A stretch of DNA of 39,198 nucleotides from a virus. Its lineage: Duplodnaviria; Heunggongvirae; Uroviricota; Caudoviricetes. Location: IMG/VR virus record IMGVR_UViG_2531839622_000028. The stretch is one strand, 5' to 3'. Under the pieces are notes generated by a model, which was not told the DNA's origin, did not search any database, and worked only from the letters and a program-made list of their open reading frames with translations. The position numbers and the translations under genes were made by a program. Below, one piece after another: positions 854 through 33,078 of the stretch; the first letter of the stretch is position 1, and each line of letters opens with the position of its first letter.

Positions 854-1591
854 TCATTCACTCTCTTTCAAACCAGTTTTAACTGTTTGTGGTTTTGGGT
901 AAGGCTGGACTTTGAATAGCTTTGTGTTGAGGCGTTTTCTGGCCCTCTTGTTCAGAAACCGGATGTAACGAAACTGTCGGAACTTATGCACACTGGCTCT
1001 GTCGATATTAGCCCTCAGATGTTCACCTCGTTGTCCGCCTCGTTTAATGGCACTCCTGCAAATCTCGTGATACCACTCGCCATCAAGTTCATAGAATGTT
1101 GATTCATGGCTGCCTACATAATCAAAATTGCTTGCCTGATACACGACACCAAGACAGCCACAACGCTCATCTGCAAACGACTGAACCCACTGTACCTGCG
1201 GATAAAGCTGCCTGATTAGCTTGAGCGCGTAACTGATTGCCCTTGATTCGGAGTTTCTCGGCATACAGTCATGCATCCATAGCCGGTTAAGCTCCATATA
1301 TTCTCGGTTCTGCGTACCCGTTACGACGCGTGCACCACTGTTTGGGTTAAGGGCGTAACCCCATTGCATTACGCCAACAAGTTCCCGTTCTGAAAATATA
1401 CCCAGATGAAGGTAGGAATTATTTACGAAACGGTGGCTGTAATGTTTATTGACGATAACCAGTCTGGCCAGCCAGCAACTTATTGTCTCAACCCGCAACT
1501 CACGGGAGCCATAACCAACGATATTGTCGTTATAGCGAATAAGTTCAGGCGTGCTGATGATACGGGATGTGACTTGCTTTCTGTTCCCCAC
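854..1591 (-). CDS. mom: Mom-like DNA modification protein (anti-restriction)
   Basis: 245-aa ORF whose 5' end overlaps the 3' end of a Com-type zinc-finger gene; last gene before the prophage end, as in Mu. Called from synteny, not sequence recall. Confidence 0.65.
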
Positions 1592-1745
1592 GACAGGATT
1601 TCCTTGTGTATGTGGGGTGCTCTGTGGCGCTCGGAGATGTGATTTGATTGAGGGTTTTACAGCGCGGACATTTTACTTCCAGATAACTGAAACTGGCCCG
1701 TGCCAGTAGCTTATTGCAGTGTCGGCACCGTATGTTTCGATACAT
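1545..1745 (-). CDS. com: Com-like zinc-finger translational activator of mom
   Basis: Motif [10 protein letters not shown]...CPRCK resembles Mu Com (two CxxC pairs); start taken at the internal ATG 1743-1745 (MYRNIRC...), preceded by AGGAGG 10 nt upstream; overlaps the mom start. Confidence 0.7.
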
Positions 1746-1935
1746 GGCCGCATAACCTCCTGCTTTGTTGTTGATGCCTTTCTCATGCAATCGATCGACA
1801 AAAACGATCGATTCGATTTGTTTAATTGATACAACAAATAGATTTAAAAGTCATCAACAATGATTCAGGGCGGTGATTATTTACTTAAAGAAACGAAGAG
1901 TTAGGTGGTGAAAACGATCATAAAATGATCATTTT
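1746..1935 (-). promoter_or_regulatory. com/mom upstream control region with clustered GATC (Dam) sites
   Basis: GATC at 1793-1796, 1806-1809, 1916-1919 and 1927-1930 in an AT-rich region upstream of com; in Mu, mom transcription depends on Dam methylation of upstream GATC sites and on C protein. Promoter elements not mapped. Confidence 0.35.
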
Positions 1936-2151
1936 ATTGACTTTTTATACAGTGAAGGTAGGATCGCGCGTATATGTAGTATGTTTCAAATCAACAGGAT
2001 ACTACATAAAAGGGAAACCCAGCATAGCTGGAACTATGCTGGGTCAATCTGTAAAAACTTGCATCAATGCTTTACTTCGAGCTCGTGGCGTATCCTATGA
2101 TATTCCCCGGTCTCCTGTAAAGCAGAGATGCATAAAAAGGAGATCTTTATC

Positions 2152-2322
2152 ATGGATAAAGAGCCTGTTTGCCCTGCCTGTAAGACTCCCTTACAGCTCA
2201 TCTATCGCCGTTCTCGATCTCAAAATGGCAAGACATACAAACCAAAAAATGCTTCCTGTTTCAGGATGCTGATATGTCCTGCCTGTTCTCCCCGGAGGGA
2301 AAATACACAAAACGTGCATTAA
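2152..2322 (+). CDS. Small zinc-ribbon protein (56 aa, two CPAC motifs), hypothetical
   Basis: ATG at 2152 preceded by AAAAAGGAG with about 9-nt spacing; CPACKT and CPACSP motifs; plus-strand gene inside a minus-strand block, convergent with the 81-aa gene across a hairpin. Confidence 0.4.
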   Translation: MDKEPVCPACKTPLQLIYRRSRSQNGKTYKPKNASCFRMLICPACSPRRENTQNVH

Positions 2323-2331
2323 CAAATTCAC

Positions 2332-2351
2332 CCGGCAGGGAAACCTGCCGG
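2332..2351. terminator. Stem-loop CCGGCAGG-GAAA-CCTGCCGG between convergent genes; possible bidirectional terminator
   Basis: Perfect 8-bp GC-rich stem with a GAAA loop read directly; sits between the stop of the plus-strand zinc-ribbon ORF (2322) and the stop of the minus-strand 81-aa ORF (2361); flanking T-tracts are weak. Confidence 0.4.
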
Positions 2352-2360
2352 TCGGTATTG

Positions 2361-2606
2361 TTACATCATAGTACCGTCAGTTCCGGGTTGAACCGGCTCT
2401 GGTTGCTCTACGGGTTGAGGCTCATTTTCCGTGCTGTTTTCAGCCGGAGAACGACCAACCATTCGGGCCAGCACTTCATCAACATATGCGTCGATTTGTG
2501 CCTCAAAATCCTTGCGAACCTGCGCCTTCAGCACGCGGTTCACTTCTTCAGAATAAAGTGCCTGTTTGACAAGCTCTTCAGTAACCGTGCCTTTAATCTC
2601 TGGCAT
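2361..2606 (-). CDS. Hypothetical 81-aa protein with acidic, Pro/Glu-rich C-terminus
   Basis: ORF with GGAAAGGAGAA upstream of the ATG at 2606; no recognisable family by eye. Confidence 0.5.
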   Translation of the reverse strand: MPEIKGTVTEELVKQALYSEEVNRVLKAQVRKDFEAQIDAYVDEVLARMVGRSPAENSTENEPQPVEQPEPVQPGTDGTMM

Positions 2607-2641
2607 GAATATTCTCCTTTCCTTTTCTGGTTCACAAAAAA

Positions 2642-2821
2642 TTAAATCTGACCGGAGTCTTTCGGCTGCGGCATTACAGCACCGCTTTTTATCTTTTCCT
2701 CGGCAGCTGCATCAATTTTATTTCGAAAATAATTGCGAATAATTTTATAACCACCGCTGACAAGCAACAGACAACAAACCACCGTGCAGAAATACAGCAG
2801 GCAGACGTTTATATATGTCAT
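2642..2821 (-). CDS. Small membrane protein (59 aa), hypothetical
   Basis: Not in the ORF track (below its size cut-off); ATG at 2819-2821 with GAGG 5 nt upstream; translation MTYINVCLLYFCTVVCCLLLVSGGYKIIRNYF... has one N-terminal hydrophobic helix and a charged tail. Confidence 0.4.
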   Translation of the reverse strand: MTYINVCLLYFCTVVCCLLLVSGGYKIIRNYFRNKIDAAAEEKIKSGAVMPQPKDSGQI

Positions 2822-2878
2822 ATAAGCCTCACTCTTATTAACTGATGTTACAGCCGGATAAATTCCCGGCCGTCACGA

Positions 2879-4927
2879 TTATGCCGCAGGGGTATTAACC
2901 TCAAGGACAACGCTCTCAAAAGACACGCCATAAGTTGCCCCTTTGGTGACATCTGTCAGTGTCAGCGTATCTTTGGCAGGGGAAAGTGCATCTTTCACCA
3001 TCTGGAATGCCTGGCCCGGAGTGCCATCCAGCACAGGCGTTACCTGGGCACTTCCCGCCGTAAACTTCAGGACAAGTGTATGCCACTGGTTATTGTAGGC
3101 TCCAAATGATCCCAGTTTCGTATTCCCCCCTGTTTTATGGTGCATCAGATTTAACTGGCCGCCTGTTGTCTGGAGATAATACGCCATCAGGAACGGTGTG
3201 CCTGTACCACTCATGGTTACACCTTCCGGGACCGTATCGGTGTGGAGGTAAATACCCAGAGCAAACTGGCCTTCTTTTACTTCACCTGACAGACGGAATT
3301 TACAGGTCAACTGACCACCATGCTTCAGAAGTTCACCGGCTGCATCAGTTCCATGGGTAAGCGTCCAGGTTTTTCCGCTTTGTTTGGATACGGTCAACGC
3401 TTTACCTTCGTCCGTCAGCTGGATTGTACCATCTGTAATTTTCCAGCCCTGAGCCGGGGCTTCTCCTGCTGATGCTTTAAGTGAAAGCAGCGTACGGAGT
3501 GACGGGGATGTCGGATGGGGGGACTCACTGCCTCCTGGCTGACTACCTGTCGGCGCTTCCGGTTTCCCACCCGGCGCGGGCTGAGGCAGGGCTTCACCAT
3601 CAGGGGCCACACCGGCAATAAATGCAGAGGTCAGACCTGCATATTTAAGAATTGCTGATGCAAAACGATCTGAGACCAGAAAACGGCGCGCCCAGGAGCT
3701 AAAATGGGTTGCCCTGGATGCTGTTGTCCAGTTGCCATCTCCCCGTGATTCCGCACCATAATACCCGGCAGAAGCGATATCCGGGTCGTGCTCCGGCAGG
3801 TTGGTCGCGGTTTTATTACCGAACTCATCGTGCATCAGTGGAACAAAGTGAATGTTCTCGGAAGCCCGGTTTTTATATCCGCTATAAATGGTTTCATATG
3901 CCGCCGGGTTCTTCTCTTTCCAGTCATAGGTTGTGTCACCACATAACCACGGCACACTGTCTGATGAACCACCAATACACTGACCGGAGAAAGCACCAAG
4001 ATCCGCACGGAATTTTTTCACCATCGCAGTAAACTGGGCACCATGCTGGGCCGGGGTCGCTTTAAGGTCTCCTTCCCCCTGAATCCATACGACAGATAAC
4101 AGCACATTCTTTGGATTCGCCTCAAGTGCCGCTTTAGTTCGACTGACAAGATCCTGATACAGTGGGGTATCCACTCCCCAGCGTAGTGACGCCTCGGCTG
4201 CACCACTTGCCGGATCGAATGAGCCAACTGCGCCGGTTGTAAAAGCAGAGCCGCCACGGGCACAGGGAACCAGTAAAATCCCGGCATCAGCAGGAATCAC
4301 CGGTAATACTTTTTTCGCAATATGAAGTCCCTGCCCCACACAACCATACTGCCCTTTTTTCAGGTCTGCTTTTGGATGGTTCAGCAGACTCATATTCTGA
4401 ACATCATGAAGGCAGTGATCTGCTGGAATGATTTCATTGTATTTGCAGGGAATACCTCCGGGGGTTTGTGTATTCCTGCGTGCCAGCTGCATAATACGTG
4501 GATCAGGACGATCATAAGAATCCGGAAGGGGCAACCCTTCACCATAAGATGAAGCATTGGACTGGCCGGCTATAACAATCACGTAATACCAGGAAGGGGA
4601 GCTGGAAGCCGTTTCATTTCCTGCCGGACGGGTATGTGTTTCTGCATTATCCCAGTCTGACGGTTCAGTAGTACCGGCAACATCAGCACTTAACGGAATG
4701 ACAGCACCAATACCCGCTCCGGTAATTTCCACGTTCGGATCACCGGATACTGGCCTTACCCACAGGCAATCCTGTGTATTAAAACTGATGAGACAGTCAG
4801 CAAATGTCATTCCTCCTTTTGTTTCGGCCGGAGGAAAGGGAGCCTCAAGAAATGCCGCTGTACCACCGGAAACTTTAACAGTAAAGTTTCCGGGCATTGA
4901 TGATAGTTGAACCCATTTGGACGTCAT
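2879..4927 (-). CDS. Modular carbohydrate esterase, SASA/SGNH type, resembling prophage-encoded sialate O-acetylesterases (NanS-p-like), with a C-terminal beta-rich putative sugar-binding domain
   Basis: 682-aa ORF; GQSN motif at residues 121-124 (nt 4556-4567) and a W-x-QGE-x-D block (VVWIQGEGD) typical of the SASA family; Pro/Gly-rich linker then about 180 C-terminal residues; no N-terminal signal peptide visible. Confidence 0.6.
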   Translation of the reverse strand: MTSKWVQLSSMPGNFTVKVSGGTAAFLEAPFPPAETKGGMTFADCLISFNTQDCLWVRPVSGDPNVEITGAGIGAVIPLSADVAGTTEPSDWDNAETHTRPAGNETASSSPSWYYVIVIAGQSNASSYGEGLPLPDSYDRPDPRIMQLARRNTQTPGGIPCKYNEIIPADHCLHDVQNMSLLNHPKADLKKGQYGCVGQGLHIAKKVLPVIPADAGILLVPCARGGSAFTTGAVGSFDPASGAAEASLRWGVDTPLYQDLVSRTKAALEANPKNVLLSVVWIQGEGDLKATPAQHGAQFTAMVKKFRADLGAFSGQCIGGSSDSVPWLCGDTTYDWKEKNPAAYETIYSGYKNRASENIHFVPLMHDEFGNKTATNLPEHDPDIASAGYYGAESRGDGNWTTASRATHFSSWARRFLVSDRFASAILKYAGLTSAFIAGVAPDGEALPQPAPGGKPEAPTGSQPGGSESPHPTSPSLRTLLSLKASAGEAPAQGWKITDGTIQLTDEGKALTVSKQSGKTWTLTHGTDAAGELLKHGGQLTCKFRLSGEVKEGQFALGIYLHTDTVPEGVTMSGTGTPFLMAYYLQTTGGQLNLMHHKTGGNTKLGSFGAYNNQWHTLVLKFTAGSAQVTPVLDGTPGQAFQMVKDALSPAKDTLTLTDVTKGATYGVSFESVVLEVNTPAA

Positions 4928-21574: not shown

Positions 21575-21695
21575 ATTGCCTCCGTATAAAATATGAATAT
21601 AAAATAAGCAGGCGGTCAGTGTACGCTTAACTGGTAAAGTCGGTGCCTGCCTCCGGGTGGATCATGTATGCGGGTTCGACCCCCGCCACTGACCG

Positions 21696-28033: not shown

Positions 28034-28364
28034 TCGTGGCCGCCTCACTGATTTGTGAAATGAGTTGCAGGGTGTGCTGCTGATTTGCCAGCACCTGACG
28101 CGCCTCATCCCGCTCACGCACAAGCACCTGATTATTGTCTTCAAGGCGCTGCGTCTTCTGGTGCATTCCCCATATAGCGGCAACCAGTACAGCGATAATC
28201 CCCAGCGCCGCCATGCACGCCCCGGCAATCAGGGCCGGTAAGGCATTATTCACCGCAGCCACAGGACACCCCGTAACAGCAGTACCGCACACAGCAGCGC
28301 TATCATGAGCGGTCGCCAGAAGCGGTTCAGACTTTCGGCAAGTCGTAGCGACATAACCATTCAT
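27864..28364 (-). CDS. Candidate i-spanin (Rz-like)
   Basis: Hydrophobic helix (ALPALIAGACMAALGIIAVLVAAIW) then a Gln/Glu/Arg-rich coiled-coil-like region; directly downstream of the endolysin; start uncertain (first ATG at 28364). Confidence 0.45.
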   Translation of the reverse strand: MNGYVATTCRKSEPLLATAHDSAAVCGTAVTGCPVAAVNNALPALIAGACMAALGIIAVLVAAIWGMHQKTQRLEDNNQVLVRERDEARQVLANQQHTLQLISQISEAATNEKQQNIQHSEGQQSVVRRSLAAVPAASAPVPDDVADRVRRAVCEIRACEAGADPR

Positions 28365-28827
28365 CCGCCGAACGGCGGGCCTCAAGGCCGGGGAGTTTCA
28401 CCCCCTTTGAATAAATCCAGCGGATATACTGCTTACAGGACGCGGGCATCTGCCCGGCATTGATCAGGCGCAGAAGCGTGGAGTTGCGAAAGTTCGTTTC
28501 ACCGGCCCAGAAGATCCACGAAGCCAGCGCCACCGTCTGACCACGGGTAAGCGGCACCTGAACACGCCGATCAATGGCCGCAAAGGCCCATTTCATGTCC
28601 TTTTCCAGTAGTTCCAGGCATTCTTCATCTGTCAGGGTCATACCCGGTTTCACATCCGGGCCGGTATGGCCGTAACAGATGGTGGGTGTACCGGTGGGAT
28701 CGATATACGTGGAGTTTTCTTTCCCTTCCCAGTAACCGGTGTAATGCGTGGCAATCGTGAACGTCCCGGCACCGGCCAGAACAAGGGCAATCAGCTTTTT
28801 ACGCAGTGGTGCGGGGAGTTTTGGCAT
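28327..28827 (-). CDS. SAR endolysin (phage lysozyme with N-terminal signal-anchor-release domain)
   Basis: 166-aa ORF; Gly/Ala-rich weakly hydrophobic N-terminus, then TICYGHTG and NFRNSTLLRLIN motifs closely resembling the P21/Mu-type lysozyme as recalled. Confidence 0.85.
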   Translation of the reverse strand: MPKLPAPLRKKLIALVLAGAGTFTIATHYTGYWEGKENSTYIDPTGTPTICYGHTGPDVKPGMTLTDEECLELLEKDMKWAFAAIDRRVQVPLTRGQTVALASWIFWAGETNFRNSTLLRLINAGQMPASCKQYIRWIYSKGVKLPGLEARRSADEWLCRYDLPKV

Positions 28828-28898
28828 TGTTACGCTGTCTCATGATGTTCTCTGAGTCAGCGTAACGGTGAAGGTGAGGCGGCAGGCTTTGCGGAATA

Positions 28899-29324
28899 TC
28901 AGAAAAGTGGCGGTTGCGTTCTTGCCAGATGCAGACGGCGCTGTTCGCGTATGACGGTATAAATCTGGGTTTCTGACATCCGGTAATGGCGGCGAAGGGA
29001 TTCAATTTTCTCGCCCCGGTCCCAGCGCGAAAATATCTCATTGTTTCGCAGCTCGGCAAAGAGAGATTCCCCGACCGGCAGGTAATAACCCCGTCCGCCC
29101 ATATAGGCTGCCTGAGCCGCAGCCACCTTGCGTGCCAGTTTACCGGCCAGTACCGGCTCAATCCCCTGACGCTGAAGTTCTGCGCCGGTGACTTCAACCA
29201 GTTCTGACAGGGTCCGCGGCCAGTTCTTTTTGAGAACATCATCAGGGATGTCATCAAGGCGGTCGATAAGGGCGTGCAGTTGCTCACTGTCACCACCAAA
29301 CATGCTCATCTGAGTTTCTGCCAT
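28899..29324 (-). CDS. Mor/C-family transcriptional activator (middle/late gene activator)
   Basis: 141-aa ORF; C-terminal pattern YYLP...RN.EIF..WD...Y.MSE.QIYTVIREQRR fits the Mor/C family; between gemA-like gene and endolysin. Confidence 0.75.
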   Translation of the reverse strand: MAETQMSMFGGDSEQLHALIDRLDDIPDDVLKKNWPRTLSELVEVTGAELQRQGIEPVLAGKLARKVAAAQAAYMGGRGYYLPVGESLFAELRNNEIFSRWDRGEKIESLRRHYRMSETQIYTVIREQRRLHLARTQPPLF

Positions 29325-29393
29325 ATCAGCCTCCGGTTCTCGCGTTCCCGGTAAGTTTAAAATAAAAATCCCGCGTTGTGGCGGGATTTGGAG

Positions 29394-29903
29394 TTAACGG
29401 GGAAGTGATTTTTCATACTGCCTGCAAACGGCGTCATACCCCATCAGCGTGCGTTCGGGCATTCCCATCGCGGCCAGCATTTTGCGGCGGTGCCATCGCT
29501 TGAGACGCTCCAGCACATCTGAGGCCAGGGCGGGGTGTTGCTCCAGCCACTGCCAGTTTGCCACACCTTCGCCGCCGTTTTGCGCGGCCGTCTGCGATTT
29601 CACCCAGCGGTTAAGGGCGGTTTCCGCACCATCGGTGATAAAGCCCTGCCGGTGCATCACCTTCCAGATGGCGCGAATTTTGGCGGTCACCGTACCCGGT
29701 TTTAAGGCCCGGTTAACCGGGTTCTGACGCACTTTAAAACCGCGTTTTTTGAAAACATCCAGCACGCGGGATAACTCATCCGGTGACATATCCCGGCAGC
29801 TGGTTTTGCCGGTGGCTGCCAGCAGCGCGGATGTATAAGTCTCATCATCCAGGGCAAGCTCGCGCTTTGCCACATGAATGGCGGATATCAGTTTTCCTCT
29901 CAT
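29394..29903 (-). CDS. GemA-like early regulatory protein
   Basis: 169-aa ORF; N-terminus (LISAIHVAKRELALDDETY...TGKTSCRDMSPDELSRVLD) resembles the GemA family; directly upstream of the Mor/C gene as in Mu. Confidence 0.65.
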   Translation of the reverse strand: MRGKLISAIHVAKRELALDDETYTSALLAATGKTSCRDMSPDELSRVLDVFKKRGFKVRQNPVNRALKPGTVTAKIRAIWKVMHRQGFITDGAETALNRWVKSQTAAQNGGEGVANWQWLEQHPALASDVLERLKRWHRRKMLAAMGMPERTLMGYDAVCRQYEKSLPR

Positions 29904-30196
29904 ACCGTATTTACCTTTTTACGGACATGGAAAGCCTTTTCTGCCTCATCCCACCGGGCATGGTGTGTTGGTGGAATAATCATTATGTGCCAGCCATCTC
30001 TGGTTGTTATCCGGCAGAAAAATTCACCGCTATATAACACAATGGCCTGCTGAATGAGCGCATCAGCCGCCCGTTCAACCGGATGTCTTTTATCAAAAAA
30101 GCAGATGATTTTTCGACATAACCACCGGGTAATAACAAATGCGCCGAAAAAGGATGTGATATATAAGCACCAGAACAACAGAGAACTATTGTCCAT
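29900..30196 (-). CDS. Hypothetical membrane-anchored protein (98 aa)
   Basis: One N-terminal hydrophobic helix; AT-rich codon usage; stop/start overlap with neighbours. Confidence 0.45.
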   Translation of the reverse strand: MDNSSLLFWCLYITSFFGAFVITRWLCRKIICFFDKRHPVERAADALIQQAIVLYSGEFFCRITTRDGWHIMIIPPTHHARWDEAEKAFHVRKKVNTV

Positions 30197-30383
30197 TATC
30201 TTTCTCCTTATTCAGTCTTCTGCGACATTCGGCACAGTCATCAGGGCTTTCAAATGTATCCGGCTCGCGATTATGAGCCAGATATAACCACCGCCTACAT
30301 ATACTGATATTATCGCCAGTTTTAAAAAAATGATGCTTCTTAGCCATCAGAGGGCGCGCCCATCCAGCGGGTAGACTATTCAT
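30186..30383 (-). CDS. Hypothetical small Cys-containing protein (65 aa)
   Basis: ORF in the coupled AT-rich run; C...C-x2-C pattern that could be a zinc ribbon. Confidence 0.4.
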   Translation of the reverse strand: MNSLPAGWARPLMAKKHHFFKTGDNISICRRWLYLAHNREPDTFESPDDCAECRRRLNKEKDNGQ

Positions 30384-30750
30384 TTGCTTTATCCTCCATA
30401 CTGGACAAAATCATCTGTATTAATGTCGGGCGTGGAGATATACGCATTTCATTAAGCGTCTGAAGGGCAGCAACAGCTGCCTGTTTATCGGTGCCTTTGG
30501 CAATTTCCGCAAGAGAATGCACAATCCATAACGGACTTAACGCCACGACTGAATCCAGAATCATGTCATCCATAATAATTTCTGACACATCCCGCTTATC
30601 ACATTCCTTATCCATAAAAGAAACGATTTTTTCCACATCTTCCGGTTTCATGCCTCCGGCGATAAGAAATTTGCGATACTCATAAGACGATCTTAATTCA
30701 ATACTCATATTCATCTCCTGTAACTCTGACAAGGACGTGATTTTTCTCAT
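30376..30750 (-). CDS. Hypothetical protein (124 aa)
   Basis: ORF overlapping both neighbours by a few nt; acidic; AT-rich. Confidence 0.45.
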   Translation of the reverse strand: MRKITSLSELQEMNMSIELRSSYEYRKFLIAGGMKPEDVEKIVSFMDKECDKRDVSEIIMDDMILDSVVALSPLWIVHSLAEIAKGTDKQAAVAALQTLNEMRISPRPTLIQMILSSMEDKANE

Positions 30751-30932
30751 TTATGTTTTCCAGTAATACGGATATATATGTCGATAAGAAGATTCATAAT
30801 AAACAGGAAGAGCGACATCCTGATAAAGAACCAAATATCTGGCATCATGGACAGGTTTCCTGTAATCGCAAATATAAAACCACCCCCCAACACCGGAACG
30901 AAAATTGCGAAAAATACAAGTCTCTTTATCAT
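30747..30932 (-). CDS. Small two-helix membrane protein (61 aa), hypothetical
   Basis: Two hydrophobic segments (FFAIFVPVLGGGFIFAI and FFIRMSLFLFIMNLLI); overlaps the upstream gene stop. Confidence 0.45.
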   Translation of the reverse strand: MIKRLVFFAIFVPVLGGGFIFAITGNLSMMPDIWFFIRMSLFLFIMNLLIDIYIRITGKHK

Positions 30933-31480
30933 GGCGTTAACTCCCGTAATACAGCGTCCTCGGCAGTCCGGCGATGGTGATAAATAAAATTCACCGTACT
31001 CTCGGATAATTCAAATTTCTCGCCTATTTCCCGGAAGGTAAGACGTCGTGGTGATTCAGCATCCCGTAATTCACGAATAAGATGAACATCATCGTCAGGT
31101 ATACGGGTGAAGGGCAGCAATTCTCCGTATTTTTTCATGCTTACGCCAATATATCGCGCCCGATTGTGGACAGAATCCCGGTCTCGCCCCAGATATTCTC
31201 CTATTTGCTTACCGGTCATCGTTCTGGCATTTTTTCGGATAAATTTATCTTCATCATGTTTAAATCTTGGACGTTTGCATTTGAGCAACTCCGGGTAAGT
31301 ACCGCGTAATAAAACAATCCGGTTATGTACACCCCAGAAACTTCTTTTTACCCTGACAGCAATATCCTTAACCGGGGTGGATGGATAAAGCGCAATCAGC
31401 AGCGCATCTTCTTCAGGTGTCCACGCACGGACATGAGCAGGTGCCTGACCTTTTCGCCCCATGGGTTGTAAAATCATCAT
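30929..31480 (-). CDS. Putative DNA-binding protein with three internal HTH-like repeats
   Basis: 183-aa ORF; three repeats of a (K/R)(D/Q/E)I(A/G)-x8-V-(H/N)N-like unit (VKDIAVRVKRSFWGVHNRIV, GKQIGEYLGRDRDSVHNRARYI, FREIGEKFELSESTVNFIYHH); first unit preceded by WTPEEDALL (Myb/SANT-like). Confidence 0.5.
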   Translation of the reverse strand: MMILQPMGRKGQAPAHVRAWTPEEDALLIALYPSTPVKDIAVRVKRSFWGVHNRIVLLRGTYPELLKCKRPRFKHDEDKFIRKNARTMTGKQIGEYLGRDRDSVHNRARYIGVSMKKYGELLPFTRIPDDDVHLIRELRDAESPRRLTFREIGEKFELSESTVNFIYHHRRTAEDAVLRELTP

Positions 31481-31483
31481 ACA

Positions 31484-31999
31484 TCACCCCCTGACTCGCT
31501 TTTCAGCAGCATAAAACTCATCAGACAGAATTTCGGTCATTTTCTGATTTGCGGGTTTTACGCCGCACTCAAGGTAAATCACATCGTCAACGCAGAACCA
31601 CTTCACAGGGCCAAACATGATTGCCGAGAAATCAATACCCAGCCAGAACAACAGTGCATCGGTTCTGGCATACGTGACGGGCGAATATTCACGCCACAGA
31701 CTGTTAAGTTCGTCAGAGGCAACGCGCAGGGCTTTGGGAATACGTGATGTGCGCGGTGTGCAGCTCCAGCCATTCGACGCAGTCGGTTTTCGCCATAAGT
31801 CGCGATGAAAAGGATATTTGTCATCCATAAAGCGCAGCCCTTTAAAACAAAAGCCACTGATACCGGATACAAATACCGACCGGCACGCAACATTCAGCAC
31901 GGCCTCAAGGCGTTTTGCCTCATCCTTAACTTTCTGGCAGTCCTGCTGATATTTTTGCCACGCGGCCAGCGCGGAAGGGTTTGATGTTTTAAAGAACAT
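31484..31999 (-). CDS. Hypothetical early protein (171 aa)
   Basis: ORF in the early operon; no family recognised. Confidence 0.45.
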   Translation of the reverse strand: MFFKTSNPSALAAWQKYQQDCQKVKDEAKRLEAVLNVACRSVFVSGISGFCFKGLRFMDDKYPFHRDLWRKPTASNGWSCTPRTSRIPKALRVASDELNSLWREYSPVTYARTDALLFWLGIDFSAIMFGPVKWFCVDDVIYLECGVKPANQKMTEILSDEFYAAEKRVRG

Positions 32000-32532
32000 T
32001 ACGCCACCTCCGCAGATATCCCGGCAGGCGCGGCCGTCCGGTCAACAATCAGGTAACGCAGAACGCGCGAGGTGATATTCCAGCCGCTTAAACCGCAGAT
32101 AATGACACCCAGGCGTATGTCGATATACGCCATCACAAACTGGGGCACGCCTTCTTTCATGGCCTGCTCATCAACTTCAGCCACCACATAAACGGTTTCA
32201 CAGGTCAGAACGCCCTGAGCAAATTCCCACGCCATTGACGGAATATCATGCCCCTCAATCCACGGCAGGGATTTTCTGAAGCTGCACCACTGAACATCAT
32301 CAGCCGCACCTTCTTGGCTGCATTTGCGACGAACCGGCTGCACCGGGCGGGGACGCGGAATATCATAAAAACCGTTACATTCCGTCAGCACCCCGGCATC
32401 GACCGCATCACGCAGAAAATAAACCATCGAGGATGGCGGCATATTCATTTTTTCAGCCAGAATGCCGCAGGTCAGACGCCCGTAAATACTCAGCCAGTTT
32501 TTAACCCCTTCAAGCACTTTTGCATCAATCAT
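31999..32532 (-). CDS. Hypothetical early protein (177 aa), possible N-terminal winged-helix
   Basis: ORF in the early operon, coupled to the downstream gene. Confidence 0.45.
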   Translation of the reverse strand: MIDAKVLEGVKNWLSIYGRLTCGILAEKMNMPPSSMVYFLRDAVDAGVLTECNGFYDIPRPRPVQPVRRKCSQEGAADDVQWCSFRKSLPWIEGHDIPSMAWEFAQGVLTCETVYVVAEVDEQAMKEGVPQFVMAYIDIRLGVIICGLSGWNITSRVLRYLIVDRTAAPAGISAEVA

Positions 32533-32535
32533 GAA

Positions 32536-33078
32536 TTATTCCTCCGTCAGCGCCACATATTCAGAATGTTTAATCTCCTGGCATTCTTCAGGAATACCCC
32601 CTTTTATTTCCCTGCCATAAGCGCCTACTTTAAACACCACGCACAGGGCATCACGGGAGAGCGACGGGGTCCACCAGGAGTCCATGTTAAACATGGAGGG
32701 GATTCTCATTACCCCCAGCTTTTCACAGAGCCAGACAAGGAAATCAGGACGCTTTCTTAACTCGCGTTCAGCGGCTTCAATCATTGCGGCAATCGCCGGT
32801 CCTTCAGGGCATGACTCATCAGGTCTGGCAATAAAGCACGGTCCGTCCCCGATAAAAGCCACATCATCGCGCTTACGCCAGCCCGCAGGCAGAGCACCAG
32901 AAAAATAAAACTCACTGATTACGTCCATGGCAAACGGCTTTAAGCGCAATCCGGCAGCGCCTGTATTTTTCAGTAATGCCCGAAGAATACTGTTGCGTAG
33001 CGGTAAAACAGTCTGTTGATATTTGGTGAAATATTTATTTGTCTGCACACGGTCTAATTTGAAATAAAAATATGCCAT
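32536..33078 (-). CDS. Hypothetical early protein (180 aa)
   Basis: ORF downstream of gam in the early operon. Confidence 0.45.
   Translation of the reverse strand: MAYFYFKLDRVQTNKYFTKYQQTVLPLRNSILRALLKNTGAAGLRLKPFAMDVISEFYFSGALPAGWRKRDDVAFIGDGPCFIARPDESCPEGPAIAAMIEAAERELRKRPDFLVWLCEKLGVMRIPSMFNMDSWWTPSLSRDALCVVFKVGAYGREIKGGIPEECQEIKHSEYVALTEE

Follow-up and report, generated by a model that had tools for sequence, protein, structure and literature searches.

We found that four short open reading frames (ORFs) at positions 29900-30932 of a 39,198-nt stretch of Caudoviricetes DNA (IMG/VR record IMGVR_UViG_2531839622_000028; the whole of this stretch is hereafter the window) are, with a probability that we put at roughly 0.8, the current occupants of a hypervariable accessory slot in the early operon of Sp18-type Mu-like Escherichia coli prophages. 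The slot is bounded by a conserved gene for a 183-aa helix-turn-helix (HTH) DNA-binding protein (o183) on one side and by gemA on the other, and its four occupants, o61, o110, o65 and o98, are all coded on the minus strand in that order. Judged from the different distributions of their homologs, the four are independent cassettes rather than a fixed unit or a single acquired block. An earlier note on this DNA, made from its letters alone, had described the run as AT-rich, translationally coupled early genes and had proposed a comparison with other Mu-like early regions for variability; this comparison returned at least six different gene sets at the slot.

The comparison covered 39 loci with both anchors, some from complete E. 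coli genomes and others from viral contigs found by a GemA search. Among them are 33 unique intervals, which fall into six or more arrangements of 633-1904 bp, all with a GC content of 0.40-0.47. The window displays arrangement A (o61-o110-o65-o98; 1029 bp). Arrangement B (633 bp) consists of a 103-aa protein, F0 (phrog_6925), followed by a variant of o98, and arrangement C (1054 bp) of F0 followed by a 46-aa zinc-ribbon protein and a 95-aa protein. In arrangement D (1078-1443 bp) F0 precedes a version of o110 in which the C-terminal ~30 aa are swapped, plus other sequence. Arrangement E (1497 bp) has F0 and a 122-aa protein (phrog_6158) ahead of o110-o65-o98, and arrangement F (1904 bp) has o61, a 75-aa protein, F0 and the 122-aa protein ahead of the same three genes. 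Some or all of the four genes are missing from related prophages whose anchors are otherwise intact (arrangements B, C and D), and o61 is replaced by other cassettes in arrangements B-E. The 46-aa protein of arrangement C is a homolog of Mu gp13 (92% identity over 39 residues) and its 95-aa companion a homolog of Mu gp14 (49% identity); thus, the Mu genes and those of the window are alternative fillings of one slot.

The exchanges can be placed at the level of single bases, as near-identical prophages differ sharply, and only at the slot. The window and the locus L015 share 95-100% nucleotide identity over 3.1 kb except at 30140-29900, where it drops to 46-51% before returning to 96% at the gemA ATG. 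Against the locus L005, divergence is confined to the segment from ~30920 to 30690. The break falls directly behind the start codon overlapping the o183 stop; similarity returns ~10 nt ahead of the o110 ATG and, at the other end, precisely with the ATG of gemA. With the junctions at these stop/start overlaps, each incoming cassette keeps the tight packing of the operon together with its own ribosome-binding site.

The prevalence of the individual genes also differs: among complete E. coli genomes, 231 have gemA of this prophage type, 215 have o110 with o65, 163 have the C-terminal domain of o98 in the allele of the window, and 109 have o61. The gene contexts rule out that o65 and o98, or all four genes, form an obligate module. 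Conserved flanks on both sides (o183 and gemA), gene content that differs among closely related genomes, recombination at the boundaries and occupants drawn from a pool common to other phage types together support the view that this is a typical accessory region. Phage accessory regions are hotspots of variable, often anti-defence, genes (bioRxiv 10.1101/2023.04.06.535777). Those surveyed by Silas et al. 2023 in the same work are like the slot of the window in their variable small genes, conserved flanks and frequent horizontal exchange; that survey used cultured phage genomes, whereas the window is a prophage. It also reported the Mu early gene E6/Mup07 as gnarl2, a small early-region gene that modulates the host envelope (bioRxiv 10.1101/2023.04.06.535777).

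The base composition of the slot points to the site itself. The segment 29900-30932 has a GC content of 0.416, and none of the 590 overlapping 1033-bp windows of the prophage body (8000-37500; mean 0.552, standard deviation 0.040) is as low, in agreement with the earlier impression that it is AT-richer than the rest of the prophage. The four genes individually have a GC content of 0.36-0.44 and a third-codon-position GC content (GC3) of 0.39-0.46; the respective values for gemA, mor and the lysozyme gene are 0.55-0.57 and 0.56-0.65. When resolved to 200 bp, the trough spans from 29900, the start side of gemA, to ~31400 and takes in the o183 gene, itself AT-rich (GC 0.46). Comparably AT-rich stretches lie at both ends of the window, within other accessory regions. 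The equivalent slot is GC-poor in Mu too (0.465 versus 0.53-0.55 in its neighbors), and likewise in SfMu (0.461 versus 0.51-0.54); hence, the dip is a property of the slot and not the mark of a single recent acquisition. The proposal that the composition reveals horizontally acquired cargo holds insofar as the block is exchangeable, but it is not one acquired block and the GC dip belongs to the slot.

The corresponding segment of Mu, from gp12 to gemA, is filled by gp13 (60 aa), gp14 (100 aa) and Mu_54/gp15 (55 aa) (E14, E15), each of unknown function. Like the four genes of the window, they lie between gp12 and gemA, are small and tightly packed, and have a GC content below that of their neighbors. 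The window differs from Mu in having the additional conserved o183 gene, which has no match in Mu, between gp12 and the slot, and in the lack of similarity of its genes to gp13, gp14 or gp15: BLASTP of the window proteins against Mu gp13, gp14 and Mu_54 gave no alignment, or E ≥ 0.38 only. As the earlier note had implied, there is no homology to Mu early genes of known function, nor is there any to the genes of the same position. The Mu region between B and C is a non-essential, 'semi-essential early' region.

All four ORFs are present where they had been reported, namely o61 (61 aa) at 30747-30932, a 124-codon ORF at 30376-30750, o65 (65 aa) at 30186-30383 and o98 (98 aa) at 29900-30196, but one start and one junction have to be revised. 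The 124-codon ORF probably starts at its 15th codon (M15, ATG 30708), which would give a protein of 110 aa at 30376-30708. This ATG has an AGGAG six bases upstream, whereas ATG 30750 has no Shine-Dalgarno sequence. The 110-aa start is the one used by the PGAP/RefSeq annotation and by every database homolog, the PHROG alignment of the 124-codon ORF begins at residue 15, and in prophages with another upstream cassette the homology starts only ~10 nt before ATG 30708. With this start, o61 and o110 are separated by 38 nt. The earlier picture of stops and starts that overlap throughout is accordingly kept for o110/o65 (8 nt) and o65/o98 (11 nt) and probably lost for o61/o110; at the edges, o183/o61 and o98/gemA each share an ATGA overlap.

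We computed ratios of non-synonymous to synonymous differences (pN/pS), taking for comparison those full-length alleles of related loci that diverge most, and obtained 0.21 for o61, 0.18 for o110, 0.13 for o65 and 0.27 for o98 (the last from few differences), compared with 0.27 for gemA and 0.15 for gp12. Protein-level homologs were found for all four. They are thus real genes under purifying selection and not chance ORFs. Gene order and tight packing agree with the position in the early operon assigned earlier. A consensus scan of 28300-32600 found no excess of promoter-like (4 versus 5.5 expected) or terminator-like (5 versus 4.3 expected) sites over shuffled sequence, though such a scan is weak evidence and a weak internal promoter is compatible with it.

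The features first read off the four translations have mostly stood: o61 has two hydrophobic segments and o98 a single N-terminal one by hydropathy, consistent with a two-helix and an anchored membrane protein, respectively; o65 has three Cys; and o110 is acidic (isoelectric point (pI) 4.8), although its length is probably 110 rather than 124 aa. The statement that none resembles a nameable family needs qualification. None of the four matched Pfam, NCBIfam or PADLOC (E ≤ 0.1), and a search of PDB sequences with o110, o65 and o98 gave nothing or only E > 0.2. Yet all four fall in existing PHROG families annotated as of 'unknown function', the match of o61 being weak. Every source lists them as 'hypothetical protein', with each exact sequence on at least 1000 contigs, and a literature search by RefSeq accession and topic found no study of the four genes.

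The widest distribution belongs to o65 (phrog_2358, E 2.6e-33), a basic protein whose gene overlaps the end of o110. In a large protein database it has 17 clusters, all from Enterobacteriaceae, with lengths of 62-72 aa and 55-94% identity. In phage genomes, tblastn found homologs in 316 records, 289 of which are Pseudomonas phages; among the matches listed, the Pseudomonas versions are from lytic Pbunavirus, e.g., ORF85 of phage 14-1, with 43-45% identity. Other phage matches include a Pantoea phage, some Escherichia/Shigella phages and a Klebsiella phage in which the homolog and a DNA methyltransferase gene overlap. The 14-1 ORF85 family has the same invariant H/C/C/C and GW..P residues as o65 and is likewise placed in a run of small early genes, and the predicted structures match (BFVD E 6e-4, TM 0.6). 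Unlike the prophage of the window, the Pbunaviruses are strictly lytic myoviruses of another host genus and have no transposition module. Some members of phrog_2358, a separate subgroup, are about twice as long as o65 (136-146 aa). We considered whether o65 might be a truncated gene, given the PHROG profile length of 146, and rejected this as the enterobacterial and 14-1 homologs are all 62-72 aa long.

A scan of genome contigs for o65 gave three loci only. In a Salmonella Mu-like prophage, the homolog is directly upstream of GemA without o110 or o98; in Citrobacter, it lies within a Cro/Q-type element; and in Buttiauxella, Scandinavium and Raoultella, it occurs in runs of small genes, with a phage-integrase-family gene nearby in the latter two. 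The Scandinavium integrase-type element also codes for a 310-aa TIR-domain protein (L056 1155-2087; PF13676, E 1e-21) ~2 kb upstream of the o65 homolog. An alignment of five diverse homologs identified the invariant residues G7, W8, P11, K16, H18, F20, S27, C29, W32, E45, P47, D48, C50 and C53, among which H18, C29, C50 and C53 could plausibly form a zinc site. There was no match to a Pfam zinc-ribbon, and a fold search with the AlphaFold2 (AF2) model of o65 gave no significant match. The model, of moderate confidence (predicted local distance difference test (pLDDT) 76, predicted TM-score (pTM) 0.60), displays a small beta unit followed by a C-terminal helix. The range of o65 from Enterobacteriaceae to Pseudomonas suggests a target conserved between the two.

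The protein o110 (phrog_1988, E 5e-44) has 13 clusters, all from E. coli, which share a conserved N-terminal region of ~76 residues and have alternative C-termini. It is 37% identical to SfMu_14 (SfMu ORF14) and to the proteins of the same slot in Yersinia Mu-like phages (vB_YpM); a 106-aa protein of the L051-53 lineage, a more remote Mu-like group, shares 40% identity with it. SfMu ORF14 aligns with o110 over 92 residues (E 1e-16) and occupies the same slot upstream of gemA; in contrast to the window, SfMu keeps neighbors of the gp13 and gp15 types, and the C-terminus of SfMu_14 has diverged. According to its published description, SfMu ORF14 lacks a counterpart in both Mu and D108 and has no assigned function (PMC4406740). 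The same paper suggests that SfMu ORF14 is a diverged gp14 of Mu; for o110, we rejected such an origin on the basis of BLASTP and of an hhalign profile comparison between the o110 and gp14 families (probability 0.3%). The AF2 model of o110 has six helices at low confidence (pLDDT 52) and was not used for fold searches.

The two predicted membrane proteins are lineage-restricted in their database matches. The hydrophobic segments of o61 (pI 10.4) are residues 1-28 and 32-58. It has a weak match to phrog_19804 (E 6.5e-5), and among phage records it is found only in LC727881, a Mu-like phage inserted in an Stx2c phage. The hydrophobic segment of o98, residues 4-24, is followed by R/K residues, and the remaining domain of ~70 aa is probably cytoplasmic. 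It matches phrog_17269 (E 2.2e-32), and a word-index search found seven clusters. When 1.84 billion representatives were searched exhaustively with an HMMER profile, just one remote homolog, P0041, was added to the family of o98 itself; a few repeat-protein matches in this search were regarded as spurious. P0041 is a 101-aa protein with the architecture of o98 from the same slot of the L051-53 lineage, where it adjoins an o110-like gene (without o65) and a dATP/dGTP pyrophosphohydrolase. The anchor of o98 (residues 1-30) is nearly invariant, whereas its C-terminal domain of ~68 residues occurs in divergent alleles, with ~50% identity overall and ~35% in that domain, on backbones that are 95-100% identical. 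This pattern suggests conflict-driven diversification of a membrane-held cytoplasmic domain.

The pyrophosphohydrolase (PF04447) occupies the slot in that lineage at L051 3735-4682 and L053 2624-3700, and is also found near the o65 homolog of the Citrobacter element (L010 4889-5488). Its presence indicates that the slot is able to hold enzymes besides tiny ORFs.

By analogy with Mu, the genes of the slot would share the early transcript of the transposition genes, made from a promoter under repressor control. In a lysogen they would thus remain silent, and expression would come within the first minutes of induction or of infection. We propose that, like other variable early genes of phages, they may be dispensable factors that modulate the host cell or competing elements and have no part in replication or morphogenesis. 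In this scheme, o65 might be a small zinc-stabilized binding module with a target that Enterobacteriaceae and Pseudomonas have in common, o110 an acidic, soluble binder made of helices, and o61 and o98 proteins that act at the inner membrane. The fast-diverging cytoplasmic domain that o98 would present there has an arms-race pattern, as might be expected of anti-defence or exclusion. Such roles, which the earlier note had proposed along with host takeover, are plausible for the four genes. More specifically, at least one of them could be a new anti-defence or inter-phage competition effector, a suggestion that we offer tentatively and at well below even odds. The best candidates are o98, as an anchored protein with deeply divergent domain alleles recombined into near-identical prophages, and o65, with its 43-65% identity across Mu-like and lambdoid-type enterobacterial prophages and hundreds of Pbunavirus genomes, a range that implies conservation of its target across gamma-proteobacteria.

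Several points weigh against our interpretation of the four genes as occupants of a hypervariable early slot. The sampled loci are related prophages of one species complex, such that their counts are not independent events. The o110+o65 pair is present at ~92% of the gemA places in E. coli, and 'hypervariable' overstates the behavior of that part of the slot. The four proteins lack any match in PADLOC, Pfam or NCBIfam, as do o110, o65 and o98 in the PDB sequences, neither sequence nor fold gave a function for any of them, and the o110 model is too poor for a fold search. Finally, the early co-transcription is taken over from Mu.

Among the other explanations, the one that fares best, although we consider it unlikely, is that o61 and o98, alone or with others, constitute a superinfection-exclusion or abortive-infection module that shields the cell or the replicating phage from other phages at the inner membrane, e.g., by blocking DNA entry. 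The two hydrophobic helices of o61 and the N-terminal anchor of o98 would suit it, as would the lineage restriction of both proteins and the deeply divergent o98 alleles on near-identical backbones, as would be expected under conflict-driven selection. However, exclusion genes usually act in the lysogen, where expression of o61 and o98 is not expected, as they are embedded in the early lytic operon and the scan gave no promoter signal above chance for them. Moreover, o61 and o98 occur independently (109 versus 163 genomes; arrangements B and E have o98 without o61), and PADLOC gave no match.

Horizontally acquired lysogenic-conversion genes (morons), expressed autonomously from the prophage to the benefit of the host, are a poorer explanation still. 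There is no intergenic room for a promoter and a terminator, the counts of consensus sites are not above those of shuffled controls, and the genes have the orientation of the operon and overlap the stops and starts of the flanking early genes. These features stand against a GC content below that of both phage (0.55) and host, a mosaic distribution and a small size, all of which would favor morons.

About equally improbable, and if anything marginally less likely, is the idea that the four genes provide lineage-conserved auxiliary functions in Mu-type replication or in the early-to-middle switch, acting with GemA/Mor or with the 183-aa regulator. One could cite for it the translational coupling to gemA of o98 and, in Salmonella, of o65, the ~92% occupancy of E. 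coli gemA places by o110+o65, and the recurrence of adjacent o110-like and o98-like genes upstream of gemA where the anchors are only 52-65% identical. Yet arrangements B, C and D dispense with some or all of the four despite intact anchors, Mu and D108 lack all four (sequence comparison; PMC4406740), and o65 is found in phages devoid of GemA, Mor and transposase alike. That the segment is an AT-rich non-coding spacer with chance ORFs, as the shortness of all four and their absence from curated families might suggest, has a negligible probability given pN/pS of 0.13-0.27, homologs down to 37-45% identity in other genera, correctly spaced Shine-Dalgarno sequences and the lack of Rfam or tRNA matches.

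An exchangeable early slot of the kind we favor is a well-known type of feature and is to be expected in the genome of a temperate phage; the families were already uncharacterized PHROGs, and no new kind of system is involved. What is new is the demonstration that the genes are independent cassettes, the map of alternative fillings (Mu gp13/gp14 among them), the placement of the junctions to the base, the revised start of o110 and the unexpectedly wide range of o65. Genes for counter-defence and host takeover are kept by phages in variable early-gene slots. The present slot occurs in ~4% of complete E. coli genomes, many of them Shiga toxin-producing E. coli (STEC), yet all its genes are 'hypothetical'. 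The cassette map offers a candidate list for functional screens of about ten small gene families, one of them common to lytic Pseudomonas phages, and places the unexplained gp13-gp15 of Mu as one alternative filling of the slot. The interest would be greater if any cassette were indeed a counter-defence or exclusion factor.

The flanking genes agree with the Mu-like layout. The left anchor, o183 (30929-31480, minus strand), matches phrog_323 ('transcriptional regulator, D5-like'; E 6e-59), with weak matches to HTH Pfam families. It is found in every related locus that covers its position, with 67-100% identity; its alleles fall into classes of ~70% and ≥ 89% identity, and the version in the L051-53 lineage is 52% identical. 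Preceding it are homologs of Mu gp12 (31484-31999, minus; 54% identical) and Mu gp11 (31999-32532, minus; PF25754 Gp11_C, E 8e-40; 67% identical). The right anchor, gemA (29394-29903, minus; Mu gp16 family, PF06252, E 3e-30; GC 0.57), is 78-100% identical across related loci and is followed by the gene for a Mor/C-family activator (28899-29324, minus; PF08765, E 3e-32), and so the four genes are indeed located as first described, directly upstream of gemA and the Mor/C gene. The 70-nt gap between gemA and mor contains a terminator-like hairpin (29366-29389, minus; nine pairs, T-rich tail). The lysozyme gene directly follows the single Mor/C-family activator (28327-29324 for the two), whereas Mu has Mor, gp18-20 and then C; this suggests a shorter regulatory cascade than that of Mu.

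The prophage region is a 100% match to a chromosomal prophage in E. coli EH031. The gene order of the latter is Mu-like, with the repressor, a ner-like HTH gene, a Mu-type transposase, a B-type AAA ATPase, Gam, gp11 and gp12, the slot, and then GemA, Mor, lysozyme, the spanins and the head genes. Among 5426 complete E. coli genomes, 231-232 carry this prophage type, and many of the carriers are O157:H7 or further STEC strains. We equate the element with an Sp18-type Mu-like prophage on the basis of matches to O157:H7 genomes and the Mu-like architecture rather than a direct comparison with Sakai; Sp18 of O157 Sakai has been described as an apparently intact Mu-like prophage (PMC2669165). The EH031 copy is inserted in the etk tyrosine-kinase gene, whose halves are annotated as partial pseudogenes on either side, beside etp and gfcE. 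The only close matches in phage collections, LC727881.1 (L001) and LC727895.1, are copies inside Stx2c- and Stx1a-converting prophages, respectively, a phage-within-a-phage arrangement.

The right end of the prophage is also AT-rich and encodes Com and Mom, the Mom-family protein being at 854-1591 (PF25680, E 9e-77) together with the Com gene. Within 854-4927 are further a 682-aa protein with a sialate O-acetylesterase (SASA) domain and DUF6645 (2879-4927), small DUF826 and DUF1378 genes and a frameshifted pair of ORFs (1925-2645); PADLOC gave no match for the genes of this segment. In the RefSeq annotation of the identical prophage, a 'tRNA-OTHER' (L003 316-395) lies between two genes for head morphogenesis, corresponding to ~21615-21694 on the plus strand of the window, while ARAGORN and Rfam found no tRNA and no RNA family across the whole window. 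Lastly, decaying copies of the slot are seen in L011 (GCA_026134715.1) and in the proteins P0017 and P0019, where o65 and o98 have frameshifts, o110 is truncated and gemA is split; these lesions point to defective copies of the prophage.

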